A stretch of DNA of 64,000 nt from Escherichia phage vB_EcoM_ASO2A: sequence record MZ726793.1; one strand, 5' to 3'. How positions within the stretch are numbered: position 1 is the stretch's first letter; each line of letters begins with the position of its first letter. A model generated the notes under the pieces. The model made no database searches, was not told where the DNA came from, and worked only from the letters and a program-made list of their open reading frames with translations. This document shows, one piece after another, positions 4,783-31,169 of this stretch. Position numbers and translations under genes: made by a program.

Positions 4783-5624
4783 TACCTCTCCTTATTAAGT
4801 AATACTGCTAAAGACTGTTCAATACCTTTATTTAAATCTGATTTTGTAAGATAGTGACTGGTTACTAGTTGTGACTTCACCGGACGTGCTGCTGGAGCAT
4901 TATAGGTTGAAGCTGATACCGCCGATATCTTAACAGGTTCTGGCATCTGTGTCAAGATCTTTTCCGCAAACTCCGCCCAAGAAATAAGATGGCTTCCTGC
5001 AAAATGGTAAGTCTTAACAGACCTTGACCAACCTGTTTTTAATACTTCAAAAATAGCTTCTGCTAAATCTGGAGCATATGTTGGACAAGAGAACTGATCA
5101 GCAACAATAATAAAATCACGTTGTCCATCATTATAGCGAGACAACATGGTTTTTAGAAAGTTATTTCCAAATTCGCTATATACCGAGGCTGTTCGAATAA
5201 TATATGCATTTGGGTTAACTCCTCGCACCATTTTTTCACCAAGTTCTTTCGTATACCCATAATTGTTTATTGGGTTAGGTGTAGTATCTTCAAAAATAGG
5301 ATGAGAATAATTAAAAATATAGTCTGTAGAAATATGCACAAAATCAATTTTAAGTTTGCTGCACACTGCCGCAATATTTGCAGGTCCATACGCATTAACA
5401 GCCAAAGCAGTAGCAAAATCATGTTCTGCTTTATCTACAGCCGTATAAGCGGCGCAATTAATAACACCATCTACATAATCTTCAATAATAGCGTTTCGCA
5501 CAGCTTCAAAATTTGTAATATCTACACGTTCTTTAGGATAAATTAAAGATACATTTGAAGGAGCCACTTTACGTAAAGCTTGTCCCAGTTGTCCATTACC
5601 GCCCAATACCAGATATGTTAGCAT
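4782..5624 (-). CDS. rmlD: dTDP-4-dehydrorhamnose reductase
   Basis: N-terminal Rossmann motif LVLGGNGQLGQAL, ~280 aa, last gene of rml operon. Confidence 0.8.
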   Translation of the reverse strand: MLTYLVLGGNGQLGQALRKVAPSNVSLIYPKERVDITNFEAVRNAIIEDYVDGVINCAAYTAVDKAEHDFATALAVNAYGPANIAAVCSKLKIDFVHISTDYIFNYSHPIFEDTTPNPINNYGYTKELGEKMVRGVNPNAYIIRTASVYSEFGNNFLKTMLSRYNDGQRDFIIVADQFSCPTYAPDLAEAIFEVLKTGWSRSVKTYHFAGSHLISWAEFAEKILTQMPEPVKISAVSASTYNAPAARPVKSQLVTSHYLTKSDLNKGIEQSLAVLLNKER

Positions 5625-6184
5625 ACACCCTCGCTACGTAACTGTTGAAAAGATTTAGCCATTGCATCTTTTGTTGATAGAATAGGTTTAAAACCTTCGT
5701 CAAAAATCATATCGAAGCCCCAATCGATCCCTATATCAGGATCATCCCAACGTAAACTTTGTTCACTAGAAGGGTCGTATGGAGTTGTGCATTTGTATTC
5801 AAAGATAGCATCCATACTCAAAACTATAAAACCATGAGCCAAACCAGGCGGAAGCCAAAACTGCGTATGGTGTCGTGCACGAAGAACAACACCGTCCCAA
5901 GCACCGTAAGTTGGACTATCTTTACGTAAATCTACAGCGAAATCCAATACTTCCCCACTTACACAACGAACTAGCTTACCTTGCGGGTTATTTGTTTGAA
6001 AGTGCATTCCTCGCAAAACACCGAAGTTTGATTTAGACATGTTATCTTGAACGAAAGTTTGTCTACCAATAATATCTTCGTATTTTTGTTCATTATATGT
6101 TTCTAGAAAGAAACCACGATCATCTTTATAAACGTCTGGTTTGATAATTACCGCACCTTCAATTTTTGTTTTTTCTACTTTCAT
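5618..6184 (-). CDS. rmlC: dTDP-4-dehydrorhamnose 3,5-epimerase
   Basis: Cupin-type RmlC sequence ([19 protein letters not shown]); start trimmed to Met41 of the listed ORF so that rmlA stop and rmlC start overlap as ATGA. Confidence 0.8.
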
Positions 6185-7059
6185 TTTCTCTCCGCTAATT
6201 TGAGTAGGTATTGCCCGTACTCTGTTTTCTTCAGTGAGTTTCCATGATACACCAAAGTCTCTAAAGAAATCCACCCTTTTTTGAAAGCAATTTCTTCCAG
6301 GCACGCAATCTTCAATCCTTGACAGTTCTCAATAGTCTGCACGAATTGACCAGCTTCCATCAGACTGGCGTGTGTTCCTGTGTCAAGCCAAGTAAATCCT
6401 CGTCCGAGAACTTCCACTTGTAACTTCCTGTCTTCTAGGTAGCTGCGATTGATATCAGTGATCTCCAGTTCTCCACGCGCGGAAGGGGTTACTTCTAATG
6501 CACGTTGAATAACAGAGTTATCATAGAAATACAAACCTGTGACAGCATAATCTGATTTAGGATTTTCAGGTTTCTCTTCAATAGAAATAGCTTGACGATT
6601 ACTCCCAAATTCAACCACACCGAATCGTTCAGGATCTTTCACCAAATACCCGAAAATACAAGCTCCGCCCCAAACATCTACCATCTCACTGGCGTTAATC
6701 AGTAGTTTACCAAAGCTTTGTCCGAAGAATAGGTTGTCACCTAAAATAAGAGCAACAGAGTCTTCTCCGATAAAATCTTTACCTATGATGAAAGCTTCCG
6801 CAAGACCTCGTGGCTCGGATTGGATTGCGTAAGTGAGTTTTATCCCAAACATAGACCCATCTCCGAGAAGATACTCAAAGTCTTCCTGATCACCTGGTGT
6901 GGTGATGATTAAAATATCCTTAATGTCAGCCAACATCAATACCGATAAAGGGTAGTAGATCATGGGTTTGTCATACACAGGGAGCAATTGCTTGCTCACA
7001 CTGCGTGTTACCGGATGAAGGCGGGTTCCGCTTCCTCCCGCCAAAATAATACCTTTCAT
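6181..7059 (-). CDS. rmlA: glucose-1-phosphate thymidylyltransferase
   Basis: [39 protein letters not shown] closely matches bacterial RmlA. Confidence 0.9.
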
Positions 7060-7067
7060 AACCCTCC

Positions 7068-8060
7068 TTAAATTTTCTCACTCCACCATTGAGGGTTGTT
7101 TAAGTACCATTCAATCGTTGAGTAGAGATCTTGTTCAAATGTAGAGTTTGCACTCCAGCCCAGTTCAGACTCTATCTTAGAAGGATTGATTTCATAACGC
7201 AAGTCATGTCCTTTACGATCTTCAACAAAAGTTATCAAGTTGGAAGAAGGGTAGGTTACTGCTTCTGGATGTACAGTATCCATATAGTCACAAACCATAT
7301 AGATGATCTCCATATTGGTTTTGGGATTACGTGTTCCAACATTATACGTTTGACCTGGTTCTCCACCTGTTGCCACTTGAAGAATAGCTCGCGCATGATC
7401 CTCAACAAAAAGCCAGTCTCGCACCTGGTCGCCTTTACCATACACCGGAATCTCTTTATTCGTCAAGATACTTGTGATGATTTTTGGGATCAGCTTTTCT
7501 GGATGTTGATAAGGCCCAAAGTTATTGGAGCAGTTGGTTATCACAACAGGCAAATCGTAGGTGCGGTGCCAAGCTTTCACAAGATGGTCAGATGCCGCCT
7601 TAGACGCACTGTATGGGCTTGAAGGGGCATAAGCTGTCTCTTCGGTAAAAGGAACGCCAGAGTCTGCCATATCGCCGTACACTTCGTCTGTGGAGACGTG
7701 TACGAACATCTTCAGTTTATTTTTTGGGAGGAGCCTTGCAGCTTCCAATAAATTGTATGTACCAATAATATTGGAGTCAATGAAAACTCGTGGATTCTTG
7801 ATAGAATTATCCACATGACTCTCTGCCGCTAAGTGAATGATGAAATCGGGATTGCACTCTACTACTAAACTTTTGACCTGGGTTTCGTTTGCCAAATCTG
7901 TCATGCTTAGTTTAATGTGAGTGATATCGCCTACATTCTCAATATCTGCTGCATAGCCCATCTTATCAACGACAAAAACTTCGTTATTAGGATCTTGACA
8001 AAGAGAGCGCACCACGGCACTCCCAATAAAACCAAGACCACCTGTTACCAGATAGCGCAT
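7068..8060 (-). CDS. rmlB: dTDP-glucose 4,6-dehydratase
   Basis: N-terminal Rossmann motif [13 protein letters not shown] and catalytic YSASK motif; 330 aa. Confidence 0.9.
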
Positions 8061-8396: not shown

Positions 8397-8532
8397 TATC
8401 TTCCTCCTCTTCTTTTTCTTCTGTATGAACGAAACCTAAGCCGTTACAATTCCAACAAGGAATAAATTGTTCCATACTAACAATAAAATTCCCAGTGCCG
8501 CCGCAGATAGGACAAATACTTACATCATCCAT
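8386..8532 (-). CDS. small Zn-ribbon protein (48 aa)
   Basis: Manual translation MDDVSICPICGGTGNFIVSMEQFIPCWNCNG with CPxC...CWNC; below the 60-aa cutoff of the ORF track. Confidence 0.3.
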   Translation of the reverse strand: MDDVSICPICGGTGNFIVSMEQFIPCWNCNGLGFVHTEEKEEEEDSGS

Positions 8533-8534
8533 TA

Positions 8535-8741
8535 TTAAAGCTCCTCAATCTTTTCTAACATCTGTTTTAACTCATTCTCTGTTAACAGAATTTCTGTGAT
8601 ACCATCATAAGTTTCTACCATCAGAGTAAAACATTTTTCCCCATCTGAACACACAAAAGCGCCACCTTCATCTTCTGTTAAGTCAGAATTAATATCTACA
8701 TCACCAAAATCAATCATCTTTTTCTCCTTTGATAATTTCAA
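8535..8741 (-). CDS. hypothetical protein (68 aa)
   Basis: ORF in operon context. Confidence 0.3.
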   Translation of the reverse strand: MKLSKEKKMIDFGDVDINSDLTEDEGGAFVCSDGEKCFTLMVETYDGITEILLTENELKQMLEKIEEL

Positions 8742-8928
8742 ACTTGGCTACACCATTAACTATAATGTGACCACAAGACATAACTCCTAGCCAAGGATCG
8801 CCGTTTTTCTTCAGGCGTTTACCGAATACATCACAAAAACCATTCTTCATTTCGGAGGCTTCATAAGAAGCCCCTTTATCAAAAACGTCTTTGAATGTGT
8901 CGATTATACCAACACATCTCAAAATCAT
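8710..8928 (-). CDS. hypothetical protein (72 aa)
   Basis: ORF abutting nrdB stop. Confidence 0.3.
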   Translation of the reverse strand: MILRCVGIIDTFKDVFDKGASYEASEMKNGFCDVFGKRLKKNGDPWLGVMSCGHIIVNGVAKFEIIKGEKDD

Positions 8929-10013
8929 TAGAAGTCAAGCTCCTCATCATCAGAGAGATCTTTGTTAGCTGAATTCAATTTGTAATTAGTTAACTGAATC
9001 TCTTGGGCTGCTGACTGAATCAAATCAGGATTCAACCATTTTTCCATCCAAGCTAAAGGACTATGTTTAGGTGCTTTAAACTTGGCTTTCATTTTCAATC
9101 GACGATAAATAGGAGCAGCATTGAAATAAACCCACTGTTTAGACAATTCGGCGTTAAGACCTACAATAAAACGACCTTCACTAAACAGGTAGTCACACCA
9201 CTGTTCCTCTTGTTCAACAACAGTGTCGAGGATCAAAGTCAACTCTTCAATATTGTCTTCGTAAATTTTACGCCAAATTGGGTCATGCATCAATGCATCA
9301 ATTACAGCATAATCCATCTTAACATGCAAGATTTCATCTAGCATAATTTTCTGGATCAGTTTACAAGCCCCAACAAACAGTTGTTGTTCTGCCATAGCAA
9401 AAGTAGCAGAGAAGGAAGATATAAACTGAATACCTTCTAATCCAATCAGGGCTACCATCCCTTTAAGAATCAGCAGTCGAAGTTCATCGTTAGCTTCAAT
9501 CAATCCTAGAGCATACTTATGACCAGCTTCTTCCAACTGACCCATGATATCAGCAATGATACCCATACGATTGAAAATTTTATCATTAATCATAATCTGA
9601 TTGATGACTTCAATTGGATCTGGAGTACATTGACGGATTATTTCAGAATACGTTAACGCATGGAGAACTTCCATTTCACTCTGCTTCATCATCATAGCAC
9701 AGGCTTCATTGTTACTCAAGAATGGAGAGAACAAAGTGATGATTGATTTTGCAAGAGAATCATTTTCCCATTGGAACGATAAGTTTTTAATCATAACATC
9801 ATAGTTGTTTTTAGAACAAGCTACGAAATCTTTACGTGTCTGATCCAGATTAACTTCGTTTTCATCCCAATCTTGTGCTTTTTGAAGTTTGTAGAGTTTG
9901 TGCATTTCAGGGTAAGTCACGTTGATAGAATCAAAAATCCCCAACTGTTCCCCCATGAAAACTGGATATTTACCTGTTTTGTAAGTCTCGTTATGTAAAT
10001 TAATTGCTGCCAT
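8928..10013 (-). CDS. nrdB: ribonucleotide reductase class Ia beta subunit
   Basis: 361-aa ferritin-like R2-type protein adjacent to nrdA. Confidence 0.85.
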   Translation of the reverse strand: MAAINLHNETYKTGKYPVFMGEQLGIFDSINVTYPEMHKLYKLQKAQDWDENEVNLDQTRKDFVACSKNNYDVMIKNLSFQWENDSLAKSIITLFSPFLSNNEACAMMMKQSEMEVLHALTYSEIIRQCTPDPIEVINQIMINDKIFNRMGIIADIMGQLEEAGHKYALGLIEANDELRLLILKGMVALIGLEGIQFISSFSATFAMAEQQLFVGACKLIQKIMLDEILHVKMDYAVIDALMHDPIWRKIYEDNIEELTLILDTVVEQEEQWCDYLFSEGRFIVGLNAELSKQWVYFNAAPIYRRLKMKAKFKAPKHSPLAWMEKWLNPDLIQSAAQEIQLTNYKLNSANKDLSDDEELDF

Positions 10014-20774: not shown

Positions 20775-21902
20775 TTATTCTGCTGGTTCCCAAGTGCCTG
20801 GGATCATTTCTCGAATACGAACACCAACAGGTTTTGTTGGAATACCTTCATCTGAAAATTCTTCATACTCTATTTCAACGAACTGATTAATCAAGGTAGA
20901 AGCATTCTCTGCTTTACGATAATTGATAGTCTCATGAGCATCTTTACGCATTAAGAATTCGACTACTTTACCATTTTCCATCTCGCCTGTCAACACTCCA
21001 TCACCATTTTTATCACTTTTTGAATTTATTACTTTAACTTCAAGCGTATGACGAGGCTTACGTTTAATAACATCATAAGAACGTTTATCAAATTCGTAAA
21101 CTCCGTGAGCATTACGATATACTACACCTTCAGCTTTCTCAAGTAAAGCTTTTTCATAGAAAGCATCAAACTGTTCTTGGTTTTCAATATACTCTGTATG
21201 AACTACACAAATAAGCTCATCAAGACCATAATCCTCCACTACTGCCTTAAGAGCAGTAAGAACATCAACACGTTTTTCAAACGGTAGATCTGGAACTGGA
21301 ATATCGTATACGTAATAGTTCAGCAAAGGTGTATTTGCATTATGCTTCTTCCAGGCACTGTTAATTTGTTGTAGACTAAGGACACCTAACCCAGCAAACA
21401 CTTCACCATCAAGAGGATGACCAACAACTTCACTAATAAAGTTTGGAATACCTTTCCAATGAGGTGGCAGGTTATACACTTCCCCAGCTTTTGATAAACA
21501 CTCCCCTTTCATGTTAATCATAGAACGTAACCCGTTCAGTTTGTATTGTGCATAACCAGGGAACACAACCCTTTCAGGATAATCTTTATAATCCTGGCAT
21601 TTCATTGGTGTGGAAGGAACATGGTTTTCAGCTTCTTCTTTTGTTTTATAATAGCCATTCTTTAACTGTTTTGTCCATTTGGCAAAAGCTTCAAGTTCAG
21701 CTTGTTCTTCCGGTGTTGTTTCATTGGAACGACCAATGTTTTTTGCTTCTGCTGTATAAGATTTTTCTGTGATTTTTCCACCTACCCTTCCATGAGCTAC
21801 AGTAACAACTGCACCATCTGTATACACTGTCCACTGTTTAAGTTTTCCTTTTGAATCTTTACCATACAGCGTTTGATTTGTTTGTTGCATTAGTCCTCCC
21901 AT
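20775..21902 (-). CDS. ATP-dependent DNA ligase (T7-like)
   Basis: Motif I YKLNGLR (KxDGxR-like with Asn), motif V EGVVYRN...KRKP and C-terminal OB-like region; 375 aa. Confidence 0.65.
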   Translation of the reverse strand: MGGLMQQTNQTLYGKDSKGKLKQWTVYTDGAVVTVAHGRVGGKITEKSYTAEAKNIGRSNETTPEEQAELEAFAKWTKQLKNGYYKTKEEAENHVPSTPMKCQDYKDYPERVVFPGYAQYKLNGLRSMINMKGECLSKAGEVYNLPPHWKGIPNFISEVVGHPLDGEVFAGLGVLSLQQINSAWKKHNANTPLLNYYVYDIPVPDLPFEKRVDVLTALKAVVEDYGLDELICVVHTEYIENQEQFDAFYEKALLEKAEGVVYRNAHGVYEFDKRSYDVIKRKPRHTLEVKVINSKSDKNGDGVLTGEMENGKVVEFLMRKDAHETINYRKAENASTLINQFVEIEYEEFSDEGIPTKPVGVRIREMIPGTWEPAE

Positions 21903-22111
21903 TTAAAAACTGAAATTTTCAATCTGTTACACACTTCATCCAAATCTGCGTCGAGTAACGTTGTAGATGTTGCCAACATATAATCAATGCTTGTGAAACC
22001 TTGCCCTTTGGCATAGTCAAACATATCTTCATACATATCTTCAAGATCACCGTCATCAAAAGTAGCTAGAAAATCCTCGTCCCCACTACGAACATAAAAT
22101 GCAGTACTCAT
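21890..22111 (-). CDS. hypothetical acidic protein (73 aa)
   Basis: ORF only. Confidence 0.3.
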   Translation of the reverse strand: MSTAFYVRSGDEDFLATFDDGDLEDMYEDMFDYAKGQGFTSIDYMLATSTTLLDADLDEVCNRLKISVFKWED

Positions 22112-22296
22112 TCATCTTCATCCCAAGATTCAAAAACGCAGCAATCATCGGTTTCTATAATACCAACACGTCCGCAGGTATTGCAAGTGATTTTATCACC
22201 GTAGAATAAATAATTTTTATCACCCTCTGTGTTTACAGAGATTTCATGACTGCCACAAGGACAAGTCAGCCAATCAACAACGATATCTTTTTTCAT
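22108..22296 (-). CDS. Zn-ribbon protein (62 aa)
   Basis: CPCG ... CNTCGR. Confidence 0.35.
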   Translation of the reverse strand: MKKDIVVDWLTCPCGSHEISVNTEGDKNYLFYGDKITCNTCGRVGIIETDDCCVFESWDEDE

Positions 22297-22305
22297 AATC
22301 CCTCC

Positions 22306-22632
22306 TTAAGCGTTCAGTTCGTTGTTGAGTTCGTAAATCTCTTCTTGAAGAGCATCAATCTCTTCCTCCAAACGGGAGATCTCTTCTTTTAGATATACCA
22401 TTTCTGATTCTTTCTCTTCTAACTCATTTTCAAATTTTACTTTATTCGCCTCATTTTCATAATGGAGTTCAGCGTAATCATCGCGCATTTGTTCAATAAG
22501 ATGAATCAGAGACAAGATGTAATTATCTCCCGTTTCATCACGCCATTCTTCACCGTGGCGGAGAACGGTAATTCGTCCAGTATCTTCATCTAAAATTGTC
22601 TCATATTTACGATCATCTGTATAAATCTGCAT
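22306..22632 (-). CDS. coiled-coil protein (108 aa)
   Basis: Glu/Leu-rich heptad-like C-terminus. Confidence 0.35.
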   Translation of the reverse strand: MQIYTDDRKYETILDEDTGRITVLRHGEEWRDETGDNYILSLIHLIEQMRDDYAELHYENEANKVKFENELEEKESEMVYLKEEISRLEEEIDALQEEIYELNNELNA

Positions 22633-22641
22633 TATTACTCC

Positions 22642-23046
22642 TTATTGAAGTTTAAGTGAACCACGAAGACGTTTCTCTTGCTGATCACGAATATATTGTG
22701 GAACCTCGTGAATTGAATCATTACCGTGCCTATTTTCAACAACTAAAGAGATAACTTGATAACCAAACTCTTCAGCAAGAGTTAGATAAGGTTTAAGTTC
22801 TTTCTCTGTGGTTGAAGTGTTAGAAACAATAATCTTGTTAAGATTAGATGCCATAGCATCACGAACAATACTCTGACACCATGCGTGTGCTTTACCTACG
22901 TTTTCTGGCTTCCAATCGTAAACACCACTTTCTGTGTAATGATATTGATCTGCCTCACAGATAGGCCAATAACCTTCAGAAATAATTTCTGCTACTGTAG
23001 ATTTACCAGCACCTGAAACGCCACGTAAAATGATAAGTTGTTTCAT
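22642..23046 (-). CDS. P-loop kinase, polynucleotide-kinase-like
   Basis: Walker A ILRGVSGAGKST in a 134-aa protein; last gene of a three-gene set. Confidence 0.5.
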   Translation of the reverse strand: MKQLIILRGVSGAGKSTVAEIISEGYWPICEADQYHYTESGVYDWKPENVGKAHAWCQSIVRDAMASNLNKIIVSNTSTTEKELKPYLTLAEEFGYQVISLVVENRHGNDSIHEVPQYIRDQQEKRLRGSLKLQ

Positions 23047-23979
23047 TTATCCTCCAAAGAAGTTTTCGATTTTTTCACGTCGCTCCTGCTGATTTAAAGC
23101 AGCCCATTGAGTCTTCGTAAAATTATTTCGAATCCATTCTAACAAAGCGTAATATTCTTCGTCAACAATTTGTTTGGCATTTTTTGGATTATCCCAAATC
23201 AGATCCCACTTTTTATCTCCACCACGCATAAGAAACTTCTTAGTAAGATAGTGTGGTGATTTAATTTTTAAAAGTAAGTTGAACGGATAGTTTGTTTCAC
23301 GAACTACAAATCCTTCGTGTTTACAATGTTTAGACATTTCAACAACATCTGAAAACTTAACCATTGGATGAACTTCAGGACGCTTAAATTTGGTGACAGA
23401 AGCAATTCCATCAAGAGCACCTTCAGGTAACATAAAACTTGTCCCATCAGGATTTTGAATTCTGGCACCAATTAAGTATGCACCTGGTTCTTCTTCGACA
23501 ATATGCGGATCAGAAGGATCACAGATTTCAAAAAGGAAAGTTGCTTTTGCACTCTCTATCCATTTGATGAAATGTTCTATGTCATCACACTCTGAAATAA
23601 TATGATTCTTTGCAATACTTGCAAAATCTGATTCAAGGCTTCCTGTTGTCGATACAATAAGTTGACCTTTATATACACCTACAGAGGCCATAAAACCATT
23701 TACTTTACGAACCACATCTACAAATTCATCCGCTGGTAGATCTGTGCCATTCTCAAAACGATTAAAAATCTTAGTGAAAGGCCAAATAACAACATTGTCA
23801 TCATCGTCAACAACGATTCCGCGACATTCTAGAAGACGAGAATCAATGTTCCACAGGTTATCCCAGAAAACTTTGTTCTTATACTTAAGAACAGATAGAC
23901 CAGAATACTCTCCTTCTTTATATGTTTTCTTATGAACTAAACCTTTTTCAACCAAATCGTCGCAATTAAATTTAGCCAC
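23047..23979 (-). CDS. RNA ligase-like nucleotidyltransferase
   Basis: Motif I RKVNGF (KxNG), EGFVVRE and LLKIK motifs; flanked by phosphoesterase and kinase genes. Confidence 0.5.
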   Translation of the reverse strand: MAKFNCDDLVEKGLVHKKTYKEGEYSGLSVLKYKNKVFWDNLWNIDSRLLECRGIVVDDDDNVVIWPFTKIFNRFENGTDLPADEFVDVVRKVNGFMASVGVYKGQLIVSTTGSLESDFASIAKNHIISECDDIEHFIKWIESAKATFLFEICDPSDPHIVEEEPGAYLIGARIQNPDGTSFMLPEGALDGIASVTKFKRPEVHPMVKFSDVVEMSKHCKHEGFVVRETNYPFNLLLKIKSPHYLTKKFLMRGGDKKWDLIWDNPKNAKQIVDEEYYALLEWIRNNFTKTQWAALNQQERREKIENFFGG

Positions 23980-23980
23980 A

Positions 23981-24532
23981 TTACTCTCCTTTGATTATTT
24001 TGTGATGGTCTACAGTTACGATATCTCGTTTACTCATCATAGAAATTATCTCATCAAAATGTAAGATTTTTCCGTGTGCATCCCAACCCACATCTAACAT
24101 TTTACCATAAGCTTCATCAGGGAAAGATCCGTGGGAATGCCCGTGTAGCATGATTGATCCACGACCTTGCTTATTCCAGGAGGCCATAGGGTAATGGCTT
24201 AAGACGAAGAACAGCTTCTGATATTTCACTTCGTCATAATACACCACTTCTCCATACTCTGCAAGCACTTCTCGGTGTTTGCTGTAATCATGGTTCCCAA
24301 CACAATAAGTGATATCCCCTTGGAGGCGGGAAGCAATCTTACGGGTATCTTCTTCAGTCCCGAAACAGAAGTCACCCAAATGCCACATCTTGACACCTGG
24401 ACTCGTAGCGCATTTATTCCATGCTTCGATCAGTGCTTCTGTCATGTGGTCCATATCTTCCCACGGTCGATATTCAGGAGCAAACTCTCGTATACGTTTG
24501 TGCATAAAATGCAAATCACTTGTAATAAACAT
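23981..24532 (-). CDS. calcineurin-like metallophosphoesterase
   Basis: Signature DLHFMH ... GDFCFG ... GNHD ... GHSH. Confidence 0.7.
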   Translation of the reverse strand: MFITSDLHFMHKRIREFAPEYRPWEDMDHMTEALIEAWNKCATSPGVKMWHLGDFCFGTEEDTRKIASRLQGDITYCVGNHDYSKHREVLAEYGEVVYYDEVKYQKLFFVLSHYPMASWNKQGRGSIMLHGHSHGSFPDEAYGKMLDVGWDAHGKILHFDEIISMMSKRDIVTVDHHKIIKGE

Positions 24533-24888
24533 TAGTATAATCCCTCGCTAAATAGGTCACGATCATGACCATTACGTTCGTAGTCAATCTGGTCTGCGTG
24601 TTTTGCAATAATGTATGCATCTTCACGACTCCACCAATTGTAGTATTGATCAATAAAACCTTGATTGTTTGGAAGACAATGCACTTTATCAAGCACACCT
24701 GCTTCTTTCAATACATTCAATTGTGCTGATAATATAGGATTTGCATGTCGAACACAAGGAATAATTAACTCTTCACCATTTTTCAGAATATATTTATTCG
24801 CAGCACAGACGATAACACGTTGCGCATAATGACCCTCACCAATCCAGGTAAGAGGTTGGTAACAAATATTGTTTTCAATACCACTCAT
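24532..24888 (-). CDS. hypothetical protein (118 aa)
   Basis: ORF, ATGA coupling. Confidence 0.4.
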   Translation of the reverse strand: MSGIENNICYQPLTWIGEGHYAQRVIVCAANKYILKNGEELIIPCVRHANPILSAQLNVLKEAGVLDKVHCLPNNQGFIDQYYNWWSREDAYIIAKHADQIDYERNGHDRDLFSEGLY

Positions 24889-25047: not shown

Positions 25048-25404
25048 TTAATAGTGCACACGAATCATTTTAATACCATAACGCAGCATGGATTCTTTTG
25101 CAAGCATGAATTTATCCCCAGCGGCTGGATTAGAAGTATGCACGAAAATGGTAGGTGAACCAAAGCAAGGTTTACCAAACGCCAGAAGTTCTTCCAGGCA
25201 CAGGAAAACATCATACCCATCTTGGTCAGAATCTTCACCCAAATCGTTGTCAAAATGCCACTCGTCTACAAAACGATAACCCTTCTGCACCTCATTCATG
25301 TAGCGAGAGGCAAGAAGTTCCTGTGATGTTTTAAACCAGATTGCATCTGGACAACCATAATCTTTTGGATCACGTAAATCATCAAGCCAAATAATAGTAC
25401 CCAT
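25048..25404 (-). CDS. hypothetical protein (118 aa)
   Basis: ORF; no confident motif. Confidence 0.4.
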   Translation of the reverse strand: MGTIIWLDDLRDPKDYGCPDAIWFKTSQELLASRYMNEVQKGYRFVDEWHFDNDLGEDSDQDGYDVFLCLEELLAFGKPCFGSPTIFVHTSNPAAGDKFMLAKESMLRYGIKMIRVHY

Positions 25405-29156: not shown

Positions 29157-29231
29157 GGCCCTGTAGCTCAATGGGAGAGCTGTCGGCTCATAACCGATAG
29201 GTAGCTGGATCGAAACCAGCCAGGGCCACCA
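29157..29231 (+). tRNA. tRNA anticodon CAU (Met or Ile2 if lysidine-modified)
   Basis: Manual cloverleaf: acceptor GGCCCTG/CAGGGCC, anticodon loop CTCATAA, T-arm GCTGG-ATCGAAA-CCAGC, encoded CCA. Confidence 0.8.
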
Positions 29232-29233
29232 AC

Positions 29234-29308
29234 GTCTTTATGGTGTAATGGATAGCACAGGAGTCTTCTAAACTCTTAGTCAAGGTTCGATTCCTTGTAA
29301 AGACACCA
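29234..29308 (+). tRNA. tRNA-Arg (UCU)
   Basis: Acceptor GTCTTTA/TAAAGAC, anticodon loop CTTCTAA, T-arm CAAGG-TTCGATT-CCTTG, CCA. Confidence 0.8.
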
Positions 29309-29501
29309 GAACATTTTAACATGAATTAGCTCAAGTGATTTGAACCCACTACTGATCATGGTGGCAGAGAATGAGGCAAGTATGTCAGACATTATAAACA
29401 AAGGCCACGGTTATATTAGAAGACATAAATGCTCGAAGAGCACCGTTCGTGGAGAACGGGGTTGGTGGAGTCACCATTCATGGTAAAATGTTTTAAAAAA
29501 C

Positions 29502-29541
29502 TATTGACAACTAACATTATTTTATGTTAGATTATAAGTAT
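29502..29541 (+). promoter_or_regulatory. sigma70-like promoter, conserved AACTATTGACAA element (copy 2)
   Basis: AACTATTGACAA-N17-TAGATT immediately before tRNA-Ser. Confidence 0.5.
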
Positions 29542-29632
29542 GGAAGGGCAAATCGACGTGGCGACGAAAACGGTCTTGAAAACCGCCGAGCTTGAAAGAG
29601 CCTTGGGAGTTCGACTCTCCCTCCTTCCGCCA
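29542..29632 (+). tRNA. tRNA-Ser (UGA), class II
   Basis: Acceptor GGAAGGG/TCCTTCC, anticodon arm CGGT-CTTGAAA-ACCG, long variable arm, T-arm GGGAG-TTCGACT-CTCCC, G73, CCA. Confidence 0.75.
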
Positions 29633-29637
29633 GATTA

Positions 29638-29723
29638 GGTAGATTGGTGAAATGGTAGCCACGACAGTTTGCTAAACTGTAGTCGGAAACGGCGTGTAGG
29701 TTCGAGTCCTACATCTACCGCCA
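29638..29723 (+). tRNA. tRNA-Ser (GCU), class II
   Basis: Acceptor GGTAGAT/ATCTACC, anticodon arm ACAGT-TTGCTAA-ACTGT, long variable arm, G73, CCA. Confidence 0.8.
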
Positions 29724-29853
29724 AGTTCTTTTTAATATAGCTTACTTTAGCAGAGTAAATCTTCGGCAAGTGGCGGTAACCACTTTACCGATAACTCATA
29801 GTTAGTGGTGTGAACACTGGCTATTTTAAAAAGAATTTAAATATTAGTATTTA

Positions 29854-29941
29854 GGTGAGTTAATTCCGTAGGGGTAGCGGGGCAGACTGTAAATCTGTTA
29901 TCATTGCGATTCGGGTGGTTCGACTCCATCACTCACCACCA
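29854..29941 (+). tRNA. tRNA-Tyr (GUA), class II
   Basis: Acceptor GGTGAGT/ACTCACC, anticodon arm CAGACTGTAAATCTG as in bacterial tRNA-Tyr, long variable arm, A73, CCA. Confidence 0.8.
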
Positions 29942-29946
29942 AATTA

Positions 29947-30032
29947 AGATGAGTTGGCTGAATGGTTTAAGCGGCGGACTGTTAATCCGTGTTCGAAAGA
30001 ACGATATAGGTTCAAATCCTATACTCATCGCC
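29947..30032 (+). tRNA. tRNA-Asn (GUU), atypical with long variable arm
   Basis: Acceptor GATGAGT/ACTCATC, anticodon arm GCGGA-CTGTTAA-TCCGT, extra hairpin GTTC-GAAA-GAAC in variable region, G73, CCA. Confidence 0.6.
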
Positions 30033-30039
30033 AGAATTA

Positions 30040-30116
30040 TGGACTTGTAGAGTTAAGGTAAACCCCCAGTCGCCAAGAGGCTTCTGGAATTGCAGGTATC
30101 GAATCCTGCCGAGTCC
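30040..30116 (+). ncRNA. tRNA-like element without canonical anticodon arm
   Basis: Acceptor GGACTTG/CGAGTCC and T-arm GCAGG-TATCGAAT-CCTGC (8-nt loop); central region folds as a CCAG...CTGG hairpin. Confidence 0.35.
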
Positions 30117-30123
30117 CAGCTTT

Positions 30124-30198
30124 GCTCCTATAGTATAATGGCTATTACAACGGTTTTGTAATCCGTGGATCTCTGTTCGATTCAGAGTGGGAGCACCA
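30124..30198 (+). tRNA. tRNA-Thr (UGU)
   Basis: Acceptor GCTCCTA/TGGGAGC, anticodon loop TTTGTAA, T-arm CTCTG-TTCGATT-CAGAG, CCA. Confidence 0.7.
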
Positions 30199-30471
30199 AC
30201 ACAACATTAAGGGCACTGTGATTGATCGTCGTATCCTGTGCACAAGGTCTGTTCGAAAGACAGTGTTCTTAGTATTGTGTTGATCACACAAAAAGAGTTA
30301 CCTGAAACTTGACCGGAGTAGGGTTGGATGGGGCAAAAGAAGAAGCGGCTCTCCCATCGACAGCAACGAAGAATAATATTTGACTTTGGTTTTGTATTAT
30401 TTTAAGTTAGCTTACCGAACGTAGGGCTAGTCACCCAACGGGATACTCGTCACTGTCCCACTCAATAAAAC

Positions 30472-30512
30472 TATTGACAACCAATAGTAAAATGTAGTAT
30501 AGTAAAGATGTA
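30472..30512 (+). promoter_or_regulatory. sigma70-like promoter, conserved AACTATTGACAA element (copy 3)
   Basis: AACTATTGACAA-N15-17-TAGTAT/TATAGT immediately before tRNA-Gly. Confidence 0.5.
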
Positions 30513-30514
30513 GG

Positions 30515-30588
30515 GCGTTCTTGGTGTAGCGGTAGCATTCCGTCCTTCCAAGTCGGCGGCACGAGTTCGATCCTCGTAGAACGCTCCA
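30515..30588 (+). tRNA. tRNA-Gly (UCC)
   Basis: Acceptor GCGTTCT/AGAACGC, anticodon loop CTTCCAA, T-arm ACGAG-TTCGATC-CTCGT, CCA. Confidence 0.75.
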
Positions 30589-30686
30589 AATTATTTAATA
30601 AAGGGTTGCCAGAAAACTTTCTCTTTTACTCATGGTTTTCTCCTTCTCTCACACCTCTTCTGGTTGCCCTTCATTAAATGATTTAT

Positions 30687-30762
30687 TGGTTTGTAGTGTA
30701 GTCCGGTAGCACACGACACTTTGACTGTCGTAGGTTTGGTTCAAATCCAGACAGACCAGCCA
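30687..30762 (+). tRNA. tRNA-Gln (UUG)
   Basis: Acceptor TGGTTTG/CAGACCA, anticodon arm CGACA-CTTTGAC-TGTCG, T-arm TTTGG-TTCAAAT-CCAGA, CCA. Confidence 0.75.
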
Positions 30763-30855
30763 TATAACAAAGGTGAGTCACTACCTCAAGTGTGAAGTTA
30801 AAAACGAGGAGCCGCCGAACACTTTCTTTTGCGGTGTACCTTTAGAATGTTATGA

Positions 30856-30932
30856 CGGAATTTAGCTCAGTTTGGTAGAGTGTACGCTTTGGGAGCGTAT
30901 TGTCGCAGGTTCGAATCCTGCAATTCCGACCA
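30856..30932 (+). tRNA. tRNA-Pro (UGG)
   Basis: Acceptor CGGAATT/AATTCCG (C1-G72), anticodon arm TACGC-TTTGGGA-GCGTA, T-arm GCAGG-TTCGAAT-CCTGC, CCA. Confidence 0.85.
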
Positions 30933-30938
30933 ATTAAA

Positions 30939-31012
30939 TGTTTCGTAGTTCAATGGTAGAACCCACGACTGATAATCGTGAGATACAAGTTCGATTCTTG
31001 TCGAAACAACCA
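30939..31012 (+). tRNA. tRNA-Ile (GAU)
   Basis: Acceptor TGTTTCG/CGAAACA, anticodon arm CACGA-CTGATAA-TCGTG, T-arm ACAAG-TTCGATT-CTTGT, CCA. Confidence 0.8.
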
Positions 31013-31014
31013 GT

Positions 31015-31084
31015 TTCCCGTTAGACTTACAGGATAAGAGTTCCACAATTTATTGTGACGCTGGTTCGAATCCAGCACGGGATA
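31015..31084 (+). ncRNA. atypical tRNA-like element with shortened anticodon arm
   Basis: Acceptor TTCCCGT/ACGGGAT (1:72 mismatch), D-arm, T-arm GCTGG-TTCGAAT-CCAGC; anticodon region CACAA-TTTA-TTGTG has a 4-6 nt loop; no encoded CCA. Confidence 0.35.
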
Positions 31085-31090
31085 CATAAT

Positions 31091-31169
31091 AGCGGGATAG
31101 AGGAGTCTGGTCGTCCTCGCCAGTTTCATATGCTGGAGATCATTGGTTCAAATCCAATTCCCGCCTCCA
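31091..31169 (+). tRNA. tRNA anticodon CAU (Met), 1:72 unpaired
   Basis: Acceptor AGCGGGA/TCCCGCC with A1xC72 mismatch, D-stem GAGG/CCTC, anticodon loop TTCATAT, T-arm ATTGG-TTCAAAT-CCAAT, CCA. Confidence 0.7.

Follow-up and report, generated by a model that had tools for sequence, protein, structure and literature searches.

What do the three small genes at positions 22,642 to 24,532 of our stretch of Escherichia phage vB_EcoM_ASO2A (MZ726793.1) do, and do they act together? The question arose from a first reading, made from the sequence alone (the sequence-only reading), of a stretch of 64,000 nucleotides of this phage, which is called the window in the following. Three abutting minus-strand genes were described there, encoding a calcineurin-like phosphoesterase, a ligase-fold enzyme and a small P-loop kinase, and they were taken together as one set for the healing and sealing of RNA ends. 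The listing of open reading frames (ORFs) fits this layout exactly, as the region is filled by exactly three minus-strand ORFs. The motifs named for them (DLHFMH, GNHD, K-V-N-G and the P-loop) were all found in the translations, and profile searches with each protein gave Pfam and PHROG matches far beyond chance for all three. We regard it as probable that the trio is an accessory RNA heal-and-seal module. This view is carried by the family identities of kinase and ligase, by their intact catalytic residues and by the conserved linkage and fusion of the three activities.

All three genes lie on the minus strand, in the order metallophosphoesterase (MPE; 23981-24532, 183 amino acids), ligase (23047-23979, 310 amino acids, GTG start) and kinase (22642-23046, 134 amino acids). 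The junction sequences revealed a spacer of 1 nt between the MPE stop and the GTG of the ligase and of 0 nt between the ligase stop and the ATG of the kinase. The Shine-Dalgarno sequences GGAGGA and AAGGAG lie within the final codons of the preceding gene (contexts GGAGGATAAATG and AAAGGAGAGTAATGTG), and a TAATG overlap joins the MPE start to its upstream gene. Because of these spacers, the embedded Shine-Dalgarno sequences and the overlap, the trio is, judged from its junctions, a translationally coupled operon segment. It sits in a leftward block of genes for nucleotide and DNA metabolism (ribonucleotide reductase (RNR), ThyX, exonucleases, a MazG-like protein, an ATP-dependent DNA ligase). 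The tRNA cluster and the structural genes run rightward, divergent from this block. Many Escherichia phages of the genus Phapecoctavirus (Stephanstirmvirinae) share 95-100% identity with the region, and MRostami-2023b (100%) and PNJ1809-36 (98.9%) match it best. A scan for promoters and terminators gave 37 sites compared with 30 expected and was uninformative.

The ligase matched the Pfam family RNA_lig_T4_1 (PF09511) over the whole profile (positions 1-227 of 227; 2.7e-15; 57.3 bits, cut-off 28.3) and phrog_562 (1e-70). With the single sequence nothing was found in the PDB, and a family profile was needed. The sole PDB match of this profile, built from 42 sequences, was T4 Rnl1 (1.5e-10, residues 48-240). 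An AlphaFold2 (AF2) model of the ligase (pLDDT 91.5) was compared with known structures by Foldseek. T4 Rnl1 and the ligase domain of fungal Trl1 were the best matches (~1e-13), archaeal Rnl3, Rnl2 and Rnl5 followed, and DNA ligases appeared only at E>=7e-5. The Pnkp ligase domain was not among the top 50 matches. The ligase was found in 607 phage records. The module is present in about 600 sequenced phages, whose hosts are E. coli, Pseudomonas, Vibrio, Klebsiella and Acinetobacter.

The catalytic residues of the ligase are conserved. Among the 42 homologues R53, K70, K92, G95, E151, E222, G223, K238 and K240 were invariant and F72 nearly so. With F72 in third place, they align in order to T4 R54, K75, F77, K99, G102, E159, E227, G228, K240 and K242. 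K99 is the adenylylated lysine of T4 Rnl1, and K92 is its counterpart. Motif I with the lysine nucleophile (KxxG, here K92-V-N-G), the E of motif III, the EG of motif IV and the KxK of motif V are all present. Nine of the ten T4 Rnl1 residues that are essential by mutagenesis in the Shuman laboratory are kept. By profile and predicted fold, the protein is an Rnl1/Trl1-type RNA ligase, and the RNA-ligase-like enzyme with a KxNG motif of the sequence-only reading has thereby been placed in a family. A DNA ligase or capping enzyme was ruled out by the PDB profile match to T4 Rnl1 only and by the Foldseek ranking; the phage encodes a separate ATP-dependent DNA ligase (20775-21902).

For the kinase, matches to Pfam AAA_33 (4e-10), phrog_2071 ('ATPase', 3e-56) and phrog_505 ('polynucleotide kinase', 2e-8) were obtained. 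A PDB search with the single sequence gave P-loop noise only, so that here too a family profile was needed; it was built from 46 homologues and searched against all PDB sequences. The top match was Pnkp1 of the Pnkp1-Rnl-Hen1 complex (4xrp, 6e-7), followed by two stand-alone RNA 5'-OH kinases of Mucorales (9d8a and 9drz). T4 Pnk (1ly1) was matched over its full length (7e-5, residues 2-131) and CthPnk, the kinase of Clostridium thermocellum Pnkp, over residues 4-134 (1.5e-4). The AF2 model (pLDDT 94) pointed in the same direction. Its top 20 Foldseek matches were chains of CthPnk or T4 Pnk only (TMq 0.69-0.79), and adenylate, gluconate and UMP-CMP kinases ranked lower (TMq ~0.5).

The kinase carries the P-loop G9-x-x-G12-x-G14-K15-S16 (GVSGAGKST), in which G12, G14 and K15 are invariant in the family alignment. 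D33, also invariant, aligns with the general base D35 of T4 Pnk. The acceptor- and donor-binding arginines of T4 Pnk are R38, R122 and R126. R106 of the phage kinase aligns with R122, so one of the two lid arginines is aligned; the position of R126 is occupied by another residue in the HMM alignment, and the C-terminal helix of the phage kinase has a nearly invariant arginine of its own at position 126. With 134 amino acids the protein consists of the kinase domain only, and the C-terminal HAD-type (DxDxT) 3'-phosphatase domain of T4 is not present. Its closest solved relatives, by sequence and predicted fold, are the 5'-OH polynucleotide kinases T4 Pnk, CthPnk and Pnkp1. A kinase of deoxynucleoside monophosphates (dNMPs) or other small molecules was considered and rejected. 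The match to phrog_139 (1.6e-4) covered the P-loop only and that to the NCBIfam dephospho-CoA kinase (1e-3) only residues 5-35. Because of the full-length profile matches, the fold matches and the fusions to the ligase described below, the polynucleotide kinase assignment is preferred. The small P-loop kinase for end-healing proposed from the sequence thus agrees with its best matches, and no dNMP kinase was found in its place.

The third protein matched Pfam Metallophos (2e-5; 25.4 bits, cut-off 21.5) and phrog_547 (9e-56). D6, H8, D54, N80, H81, H113, H132 and H134 were invariant in 51 homologues. They form the full ligand set of a binuclear metal centre, in the motif order DxH ... GD ... 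GNH(D/E) ... H ... GHxH. The metallophosphoesterase as putative phosphatase, in which the phage was said to differ from T4, is borne out at the level of the family, as T4 uses a HAD phosphatase. At E<=0.1 the MPE family profile detected Aquifex aq_1665 (1xm7, 3.7e-23) and a few marginal MPEs in the PDB. MPE domains of CthPnkp and lambda-Pase hydrolyze 2',3'-cyclic phosphates (PMC2190708). An MPE instead of a HAD phosphatase thus has a precedent in bacterial Pnkp, though from another MPE clade (PMC2190708). The chemistry of the superfamily and the gene linkage fit a predicted role of the phage MPE as 2',3'-cyclic phosphodiesterase and 3'/2'-phosphomonoesterase on RNA ends.

Whether the three genes act jointly was examined in other phages and in bacteria. 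For phages, 80 IMG/VR loci encoding homologues of the ligase at 40-88% identity were used, and these ligases form 42 clusters at 70% identity; neighbours within 6 kb were recorded, and this distance applies to the counts of neighbours in phage loci below. Near the ligase, 73 loci had the kinase and 66 the MPE, the latter corresponding to 39 of the 42 ligase lineages. The orders mpe-lig-kin, kin-lig-mpe and lig-mpe-kin as well as one divergent arrangement occurred. A single ORF encodes both kinase and ligase in two phage lineages (12 loci), e.g. in locus L051 (5569-6834, 421 amino acids). On chromosomes of Moraxella, Neisseriaceae, Cardiobacteriaceae and Pasteurellaceae a kinase-ligase fusion of about 500 amino acids is followed by a homologue of the phage MPE (E ~1e-50), and in most loci the two genes are separated by 1 to about 150 nt. 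In Moraxella boevrei (L194) the fusion (5413-6906) and the MPE (6908-7645) stand between hisG/dam/murA and fhs, and therefore this module does not belong to a prophage. A 712-amino-acid kinase-MPE-ligase protein of Leptolyngbya-type cyanobacteria contains the ligase homologue as its C-terminal third. Cyanobacterial proteins of this kind have 700-810 amino acids and match the kinase (3.5e-11) and phosphatase (4j6o, 2.5e-24) of CthPnkp. The trifunctional gene of Leptolyngbya sp. PCC 7375 (L196, 4768-6906), in which a healing cassette like that of Pnkp is joined to a ligase of the Rnl1 type, has an RtcB gene 1.6 kb downstream.

The ligase family comprises 7,425 representatives at E<=1e-3 and 479 at E<=1e-30. 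Among its best 150 representatives about 27 long, N-terminally extended proteins of the trifunctional type were detected, besides three kinase-ligase and three ligase-kinase fusions (the latter P0386, P0406 and P0457). Through these Rosetta-stone fusions the ligase family is tied to a 5' kinase and an MPE-type phosphatase. Comparative genomics thus answers the question of joint action fairly clearly, and the grouping of the three genes into one end-healing and sealing set is supported by conserved synteny and by gene fusions.

Of 121 Phapecoctavirus records, 112 had the full trio. In the type phage phAPEC8 (NC_020079) exactly positions 22043-24345 (2.3 kb) are missing, and the flanks are 100% and 94.6% identical. 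Kinase and ligase are absent with this segment, together with a 62-amino-acid zinc-ribbon ORF, a 108-amino-acid coiled-coil ORF, part of a 73-amino-acid ORF and the larger part of the MPE; the first 62 codons of the MPE are left in phAPEC8. The phages phiWec188 and phiWec181 lack ligase and kinase only. In view of phAPEC8 the module is, as far as genome comparison tells, accessory and dispensable. Dispensability and patchy distribution are compatible with an accessory, conditional function in conflict or defence.

About 500 bp upstream of the trio a further gene (25048-25404, minus strand, 118 amino acids) encodes a cREC (cyclic-phosphate-processing receiver-like) protein. It matched Pfam cREC_REC (PF20274) at 1.6e-13 (51.6 bits, cut-off 27). 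In 14 sequences DD (8-9), FDND (51-54), H89, S91, N92 and P93 (with Thr or Ser at 90) and K98 were invariant. In six phage loci (L005-L009 and L016) the cREC gene lies directly between ligase and kinase, and in another (L017) directly downstream of the ligase. The family was defined by Iyer et al. 2021, who predicted opening or processing of 2',3'-cyclic phosphates, noted the operonic link to RNA ligases and remarked on calcineurin-like domains as the phosphatase of some phage RNA-repair sets (PMC7824862). The cREC protein is likely a fourth part of the module, with a predicted enzymatic activity. The gene had been overlooked in the sequence-only reading, and some GenBank records misname it 'RNA ligase and tail attachment protein'.

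The proteins would act in three steps, each predicted from homology. The MPE, possibly with the help of cREC, would strip the cyclic or 3' phosphate and leave a 3'-OH. The P-loop kinase would move a phosphate from a nucleoside triphosphate onto the 5'-OH, giving a 5'-PO4. The Rnl1-type ligase, adenylylated at Lys92, would then join the two ends. By analogy with T4 and PrrC, tRNAs cut in their anticodon loops may be the substrate; anticodon nucleases would then be the selective pressure and the module a counter-defence.

Several observations weigh against this interpretation. Within the window there is no pointer to the nuclease or the RNA that would be countered. In the kinase, R38 of T4 Pnk is replaced by a nearly invariant His36, and in the ligase K119 of T4 Rnl1 is replaced by Thr112. 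The ligase reached 23 bits with the T4 RnlA equivalog model (NCBIfam TIGR02308, cut-off 242), and its helical C-terminal region has about 66 amino acids, about half of the tRNA-specificity domain of T4 Rnl1 (~120 amino acids). For these two reasons it is, by sequence comparison, a member of the Rnl1 superfamily clade and not an RnlA equivalog. The MPE profile did not detect the CthPnkp phosphatase (4j6o) or lambda phosphatase (1g5b) in the PDB search at E<=0.1; the cyanobacterial trifunctional homologue, by contrast, matched 4j6o. By these matches the MPE belongs to the uncharacterised aq_1665 clade and not to the CthPnkp/lambda clade. Seen from the MPE, the linkage is also looser: of 80 viral MPE loci, just 31 had ligase and kinase nearby, and 44 (55%) had neither ligase, kinase nor cREC. 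Within Phapecoctavirus the MPE is kept after loss of ligase and kinase in phiWec188, phiWec181 and IMG/VR locus L089, and it was missing near the phage kinase-ligase fusions. From this looser linkage, the MPE-only phages and the fusions without MPE, the MPE family probably has a broader or additional role. As the linkage is asymmetric, the MPE is the weakest link of the module.

The same MPE observations favour another explanation. The repair unit could consist of kinase and ligase only, the MPE serving another purpose (e.g. hydrolysis of nucleotide second messengers or 2',3'-cyclic nucleoside monophosphates, or protein dephosphorylation), while cREC or a host enzyme heals the 3' end. The only solved relative of the MPE, aq_1665, is without known function, and cREC is an alternative candidate healer (PMC7824862). 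This explanation is nevertheless unlikely. The MPE accompanies nearly all phage ligase lineages despite the shuffled gene order, and on bacterial chromosomes the MPE stays closely paired with the kinase-ligase fusion. The cyanobacterial homologues place an MPE between kinase and ligase in one chain, and translational coupling links MPE and ligase in the window. A heal-and-seal module including the MPE is thus preferred. A more far-reaching proposal can be made only tentatively and is rather doubtful as a whole: MPEs of the aq_1665/COG4186 type might be the dedicated RNA 2',3'-end healers of a widespread split Pnk/Rnl1 system in phages and on chromosomes of Moraxellaceae, Neisseriaceae and Pasteurellaceae. 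In the present phage the MPE would work in series with cREC, which would open the cyclic phosphate before the MPE removes the monoester. If this is true, it would be the first function for both orphan families, and the phage would have a four-enzyme pathway that differs from the T4 and Pnkp-Hen1 pathways.

A further alternative is a function in the RNA metabolism of the phage itself, by maturation or repair of its tRNAs or processed transcripts, instead of a counter-defence. At a distance of 5 kb there is a large tRNA cluster, some members of which are unusual. ARAGORN identified 10 tRNAs at 29157-31169; another at 29854-29938 (plus strand), missed by ARAGORN, was found with Rfam (39 bits; anticodon loop cuGUAaa for Tyr, long variable arm). 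The statement that the phage has its own tRNA set was thus correct. The total is at least 11, none of them a tRNA-Lys, and a tRNA-like element at 29542-29628 (plus strand; loop cuUGAaa, Ser-UGA-like) stayed below the RF01852 threshold (37 bits, threshold 47). The Moraxella homologues outside prophages stand among housekeeping genes, which suggests a general role in RNA maintenance. Use on the phage's own RNA is all the same quite improbable. phAPEC8 is viable without the module yet keeps the tRNA cluster region, and split or intron-containing tRNAs were not seen in the cluster with ARAGORN and Rfam. A role as conflict genes agrees better with the T4 example and with the patchy, accessory occurrence of the module.

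Two further observations concern the tRNA cluster. The tRNA-Asn(GUU) at 29948-30033 (plus strand) has 86 nt and a long variable arm in the style of class II, which is unusual for Asn. Its anticodon stem is gcgga/uccgu and its loop CUGUUAA, and it could be derived from a tRNA-Tyr or tRNA-Ser with altered anticodon. Near-identical strong sigma70-like promoters (ctaTTGACAac - N17 - TAgatTATAAGT-like) were noted at ~29497-29540 and ~30470-30510 (plus strand). This repetition inside the cluster suggests several independent tRNA transcription units.

It is very improbable that the enzymes act on DNA ends (breaks with 5'-OH or 3'-phosphate) for the phage DNA ligase, or that the ligase is a non-catalytic tail-fibre attachment protein like T4 gp63: the trio does lie in a DNA-metabolism block 1.1 kb from the DNA ligase gene, DNA is also a substrate of T4 Pnk and CthPnk, and the PHROG and GenBank names of the ligase include 'tail fiber attachment catalyst', but the family is that of Rnl1 and Trl1 with DNA ligases distant, the direct fusions are to an RNA-ligase module, the label was taken over from T4 gp63 by name only, and the gene stands outside the rightward structural block and has homologues on non-phage bacterial chromosomes.

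Two other neighbours carry names related to restriction. The product of a 62-amino-acid zinc-ribbon ORF (CxC...CxxC; 22108-22296, minus strand) is called 'Lar-family restriction alleviation' in phage SKA64, a label that neither Pfam nor PADLOC backs. A 118-amino-acid phrog_839 protein (24532-24888, minus strand) is named 'anti-restriction nuclease' in several records. It was rejected as a part of the module, with no Pfam or PDB match and no PADLOC support, and it occurred near the ligase in just 3 of 80 loci. As Pfam and PADLOC support was not found, both labels seem to be inherited names. PADLOC also gave no meaningful match of the module proteins to any defence-system model. Besides its kinase-ligase fusion, phage locus L051 encodes another RNA ligase, which belongs to a different family (8518-9597; Pfam RNA_ligase PF09414 with a PHA02142 OB domain) and lies 1.7 kb away beside a PRPP-synthetase-like gene. 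More than one RNA ligase per phage appears to be common.

How does the proposed heal-and-seal module compare with known systems? Defences that cut tRNA (PrrC, RloC, Cas13, retron and PARIS-type effectors) are still being discovered, and to our knowledge T4 Pnkp with Rnl1 is the sole experimentally established RNA-repair countermeasure of a phage. These two enzymes mend tRNALys cut by PrrC (Amitsur 1987, as cited in PMC10264068). T4 Pnkp (PseT) and RnlA (gp63) perform the same three steps as predicted here, 5' phosphorylation, removal of the 2',3' or 3' phosphate and ATP-dependent sealing. The phage ligase is homologous to T4 Rnl1 and the phage kinase to the kinase domain of T4 Pnk, and both systems are phage-encoded and non-essential. 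The phage kinase differs in standing alone, as the phosphatase is a separate binuclear MPE and no HAD domain. The phage ligase is shorter (310 compared with 374 amino acids), with half of the C-terminal domain, a threonine for K119 and a score below the RnlA equivalog threshold. The target in T4 is the PrrC anticodon nuclease; a PrrC-type target of the present module may be assumed by analogy only.

The bacterial Pnkp systems of Clostridium thermocellum and Capnocytophaga (Pnkp1) combine a P-loop 5' kinase, an MPE 2',3' phosphatase and an ATP-dependent ligase (PMC2190708, PMC3675462, PMC4411300). Pnkp-Hen1 and Pnkp1-Rnl-Hen1 thus use the same enzyme superfamilies, and the phage kinase finds its best matches, by sequence and fold, in Pnkp1 and CthPnk. 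In cyanobacteria, relatives of the phage ligase have kinase and phosphatase domains resembling those of CthPnkp within the same polypeptide. The phage module differs in consisting of three polypeptides, in the aq_1665 clade of its MPE and in the Rnl1 type of its ligase. A Hen1 methyltransferase was seen neither in the ORFs on either side of the trio nor in annotated relatives; a genome-wide search was not made.

Fungal and plant Trl1 follows the same heal-and-seal logic, and its ligase domain shared the top rank with T4 Rnl1 in the fold search for the phage ligase. Mucorales have a split arrangement of RNA ligase and RNA 5'-OH kinase, and their stand-alone kinases rank second and third for the phage kinase profile. 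In contrast, Trl1 has a 2H cyclic phosphodiesterase and needs a 2'-PO4 at the junction, which is later removed by Tpt1, whereas the candidate healer of the phage is an MPE, with or without cREC. A gene for a 2H protein or Tpt1/KptA was not seen in the neighbourhood of the trio.

Closer relatives have been annotated before. In phage Bas60 PaulScherrer of the BASEL collection the genes stand in the same order at about 88% DNA identity and are labelled polynucleotide kinase, RNA ligase and putative phosphoesterase. The annotation of SKA64 reads 'RNA ligase/RNA repair'. The Pakpunavirus Adele has the same gene families (PaAdele_025/026), with a ligase 37.6% identical to the one described here. For Adele, tRNA repair by a kinase and RNA ligases was proposed in 2025, and the kinase was reported without a 3'-phosphatase domain (PMC12846349). 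For Bas60 and Adele the statements are annotations or remarks and do not include an analysis of the MPE partner, cREC, the fusions or the bacterial homologues. A literature search found no experimental work on the module and nothing specific on an RNA ligase of Phapecoctavirus or Stephanstirmvirinae, and a paper on Septu and T6 proved to deal with matters other than RNA repair. As close relatives already carry the annotation, the functional reading is not new.

Many of the phages carrying the module are candidates for phage therapy. If the reading is confirmed, it would give the first function for the aq_1665-type MPE family and possibly for cREC, and the textbook concept would be unchanged. 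Because the natural deletion variants phAPEC8, phiWec181 and phiWec188 exist, the counter-defence hypothesis is directly testable, and the value of the module lies in its use as a tractable test-bed. The module is real but an expected relative of the T4 system, of which it represents a compact split version.

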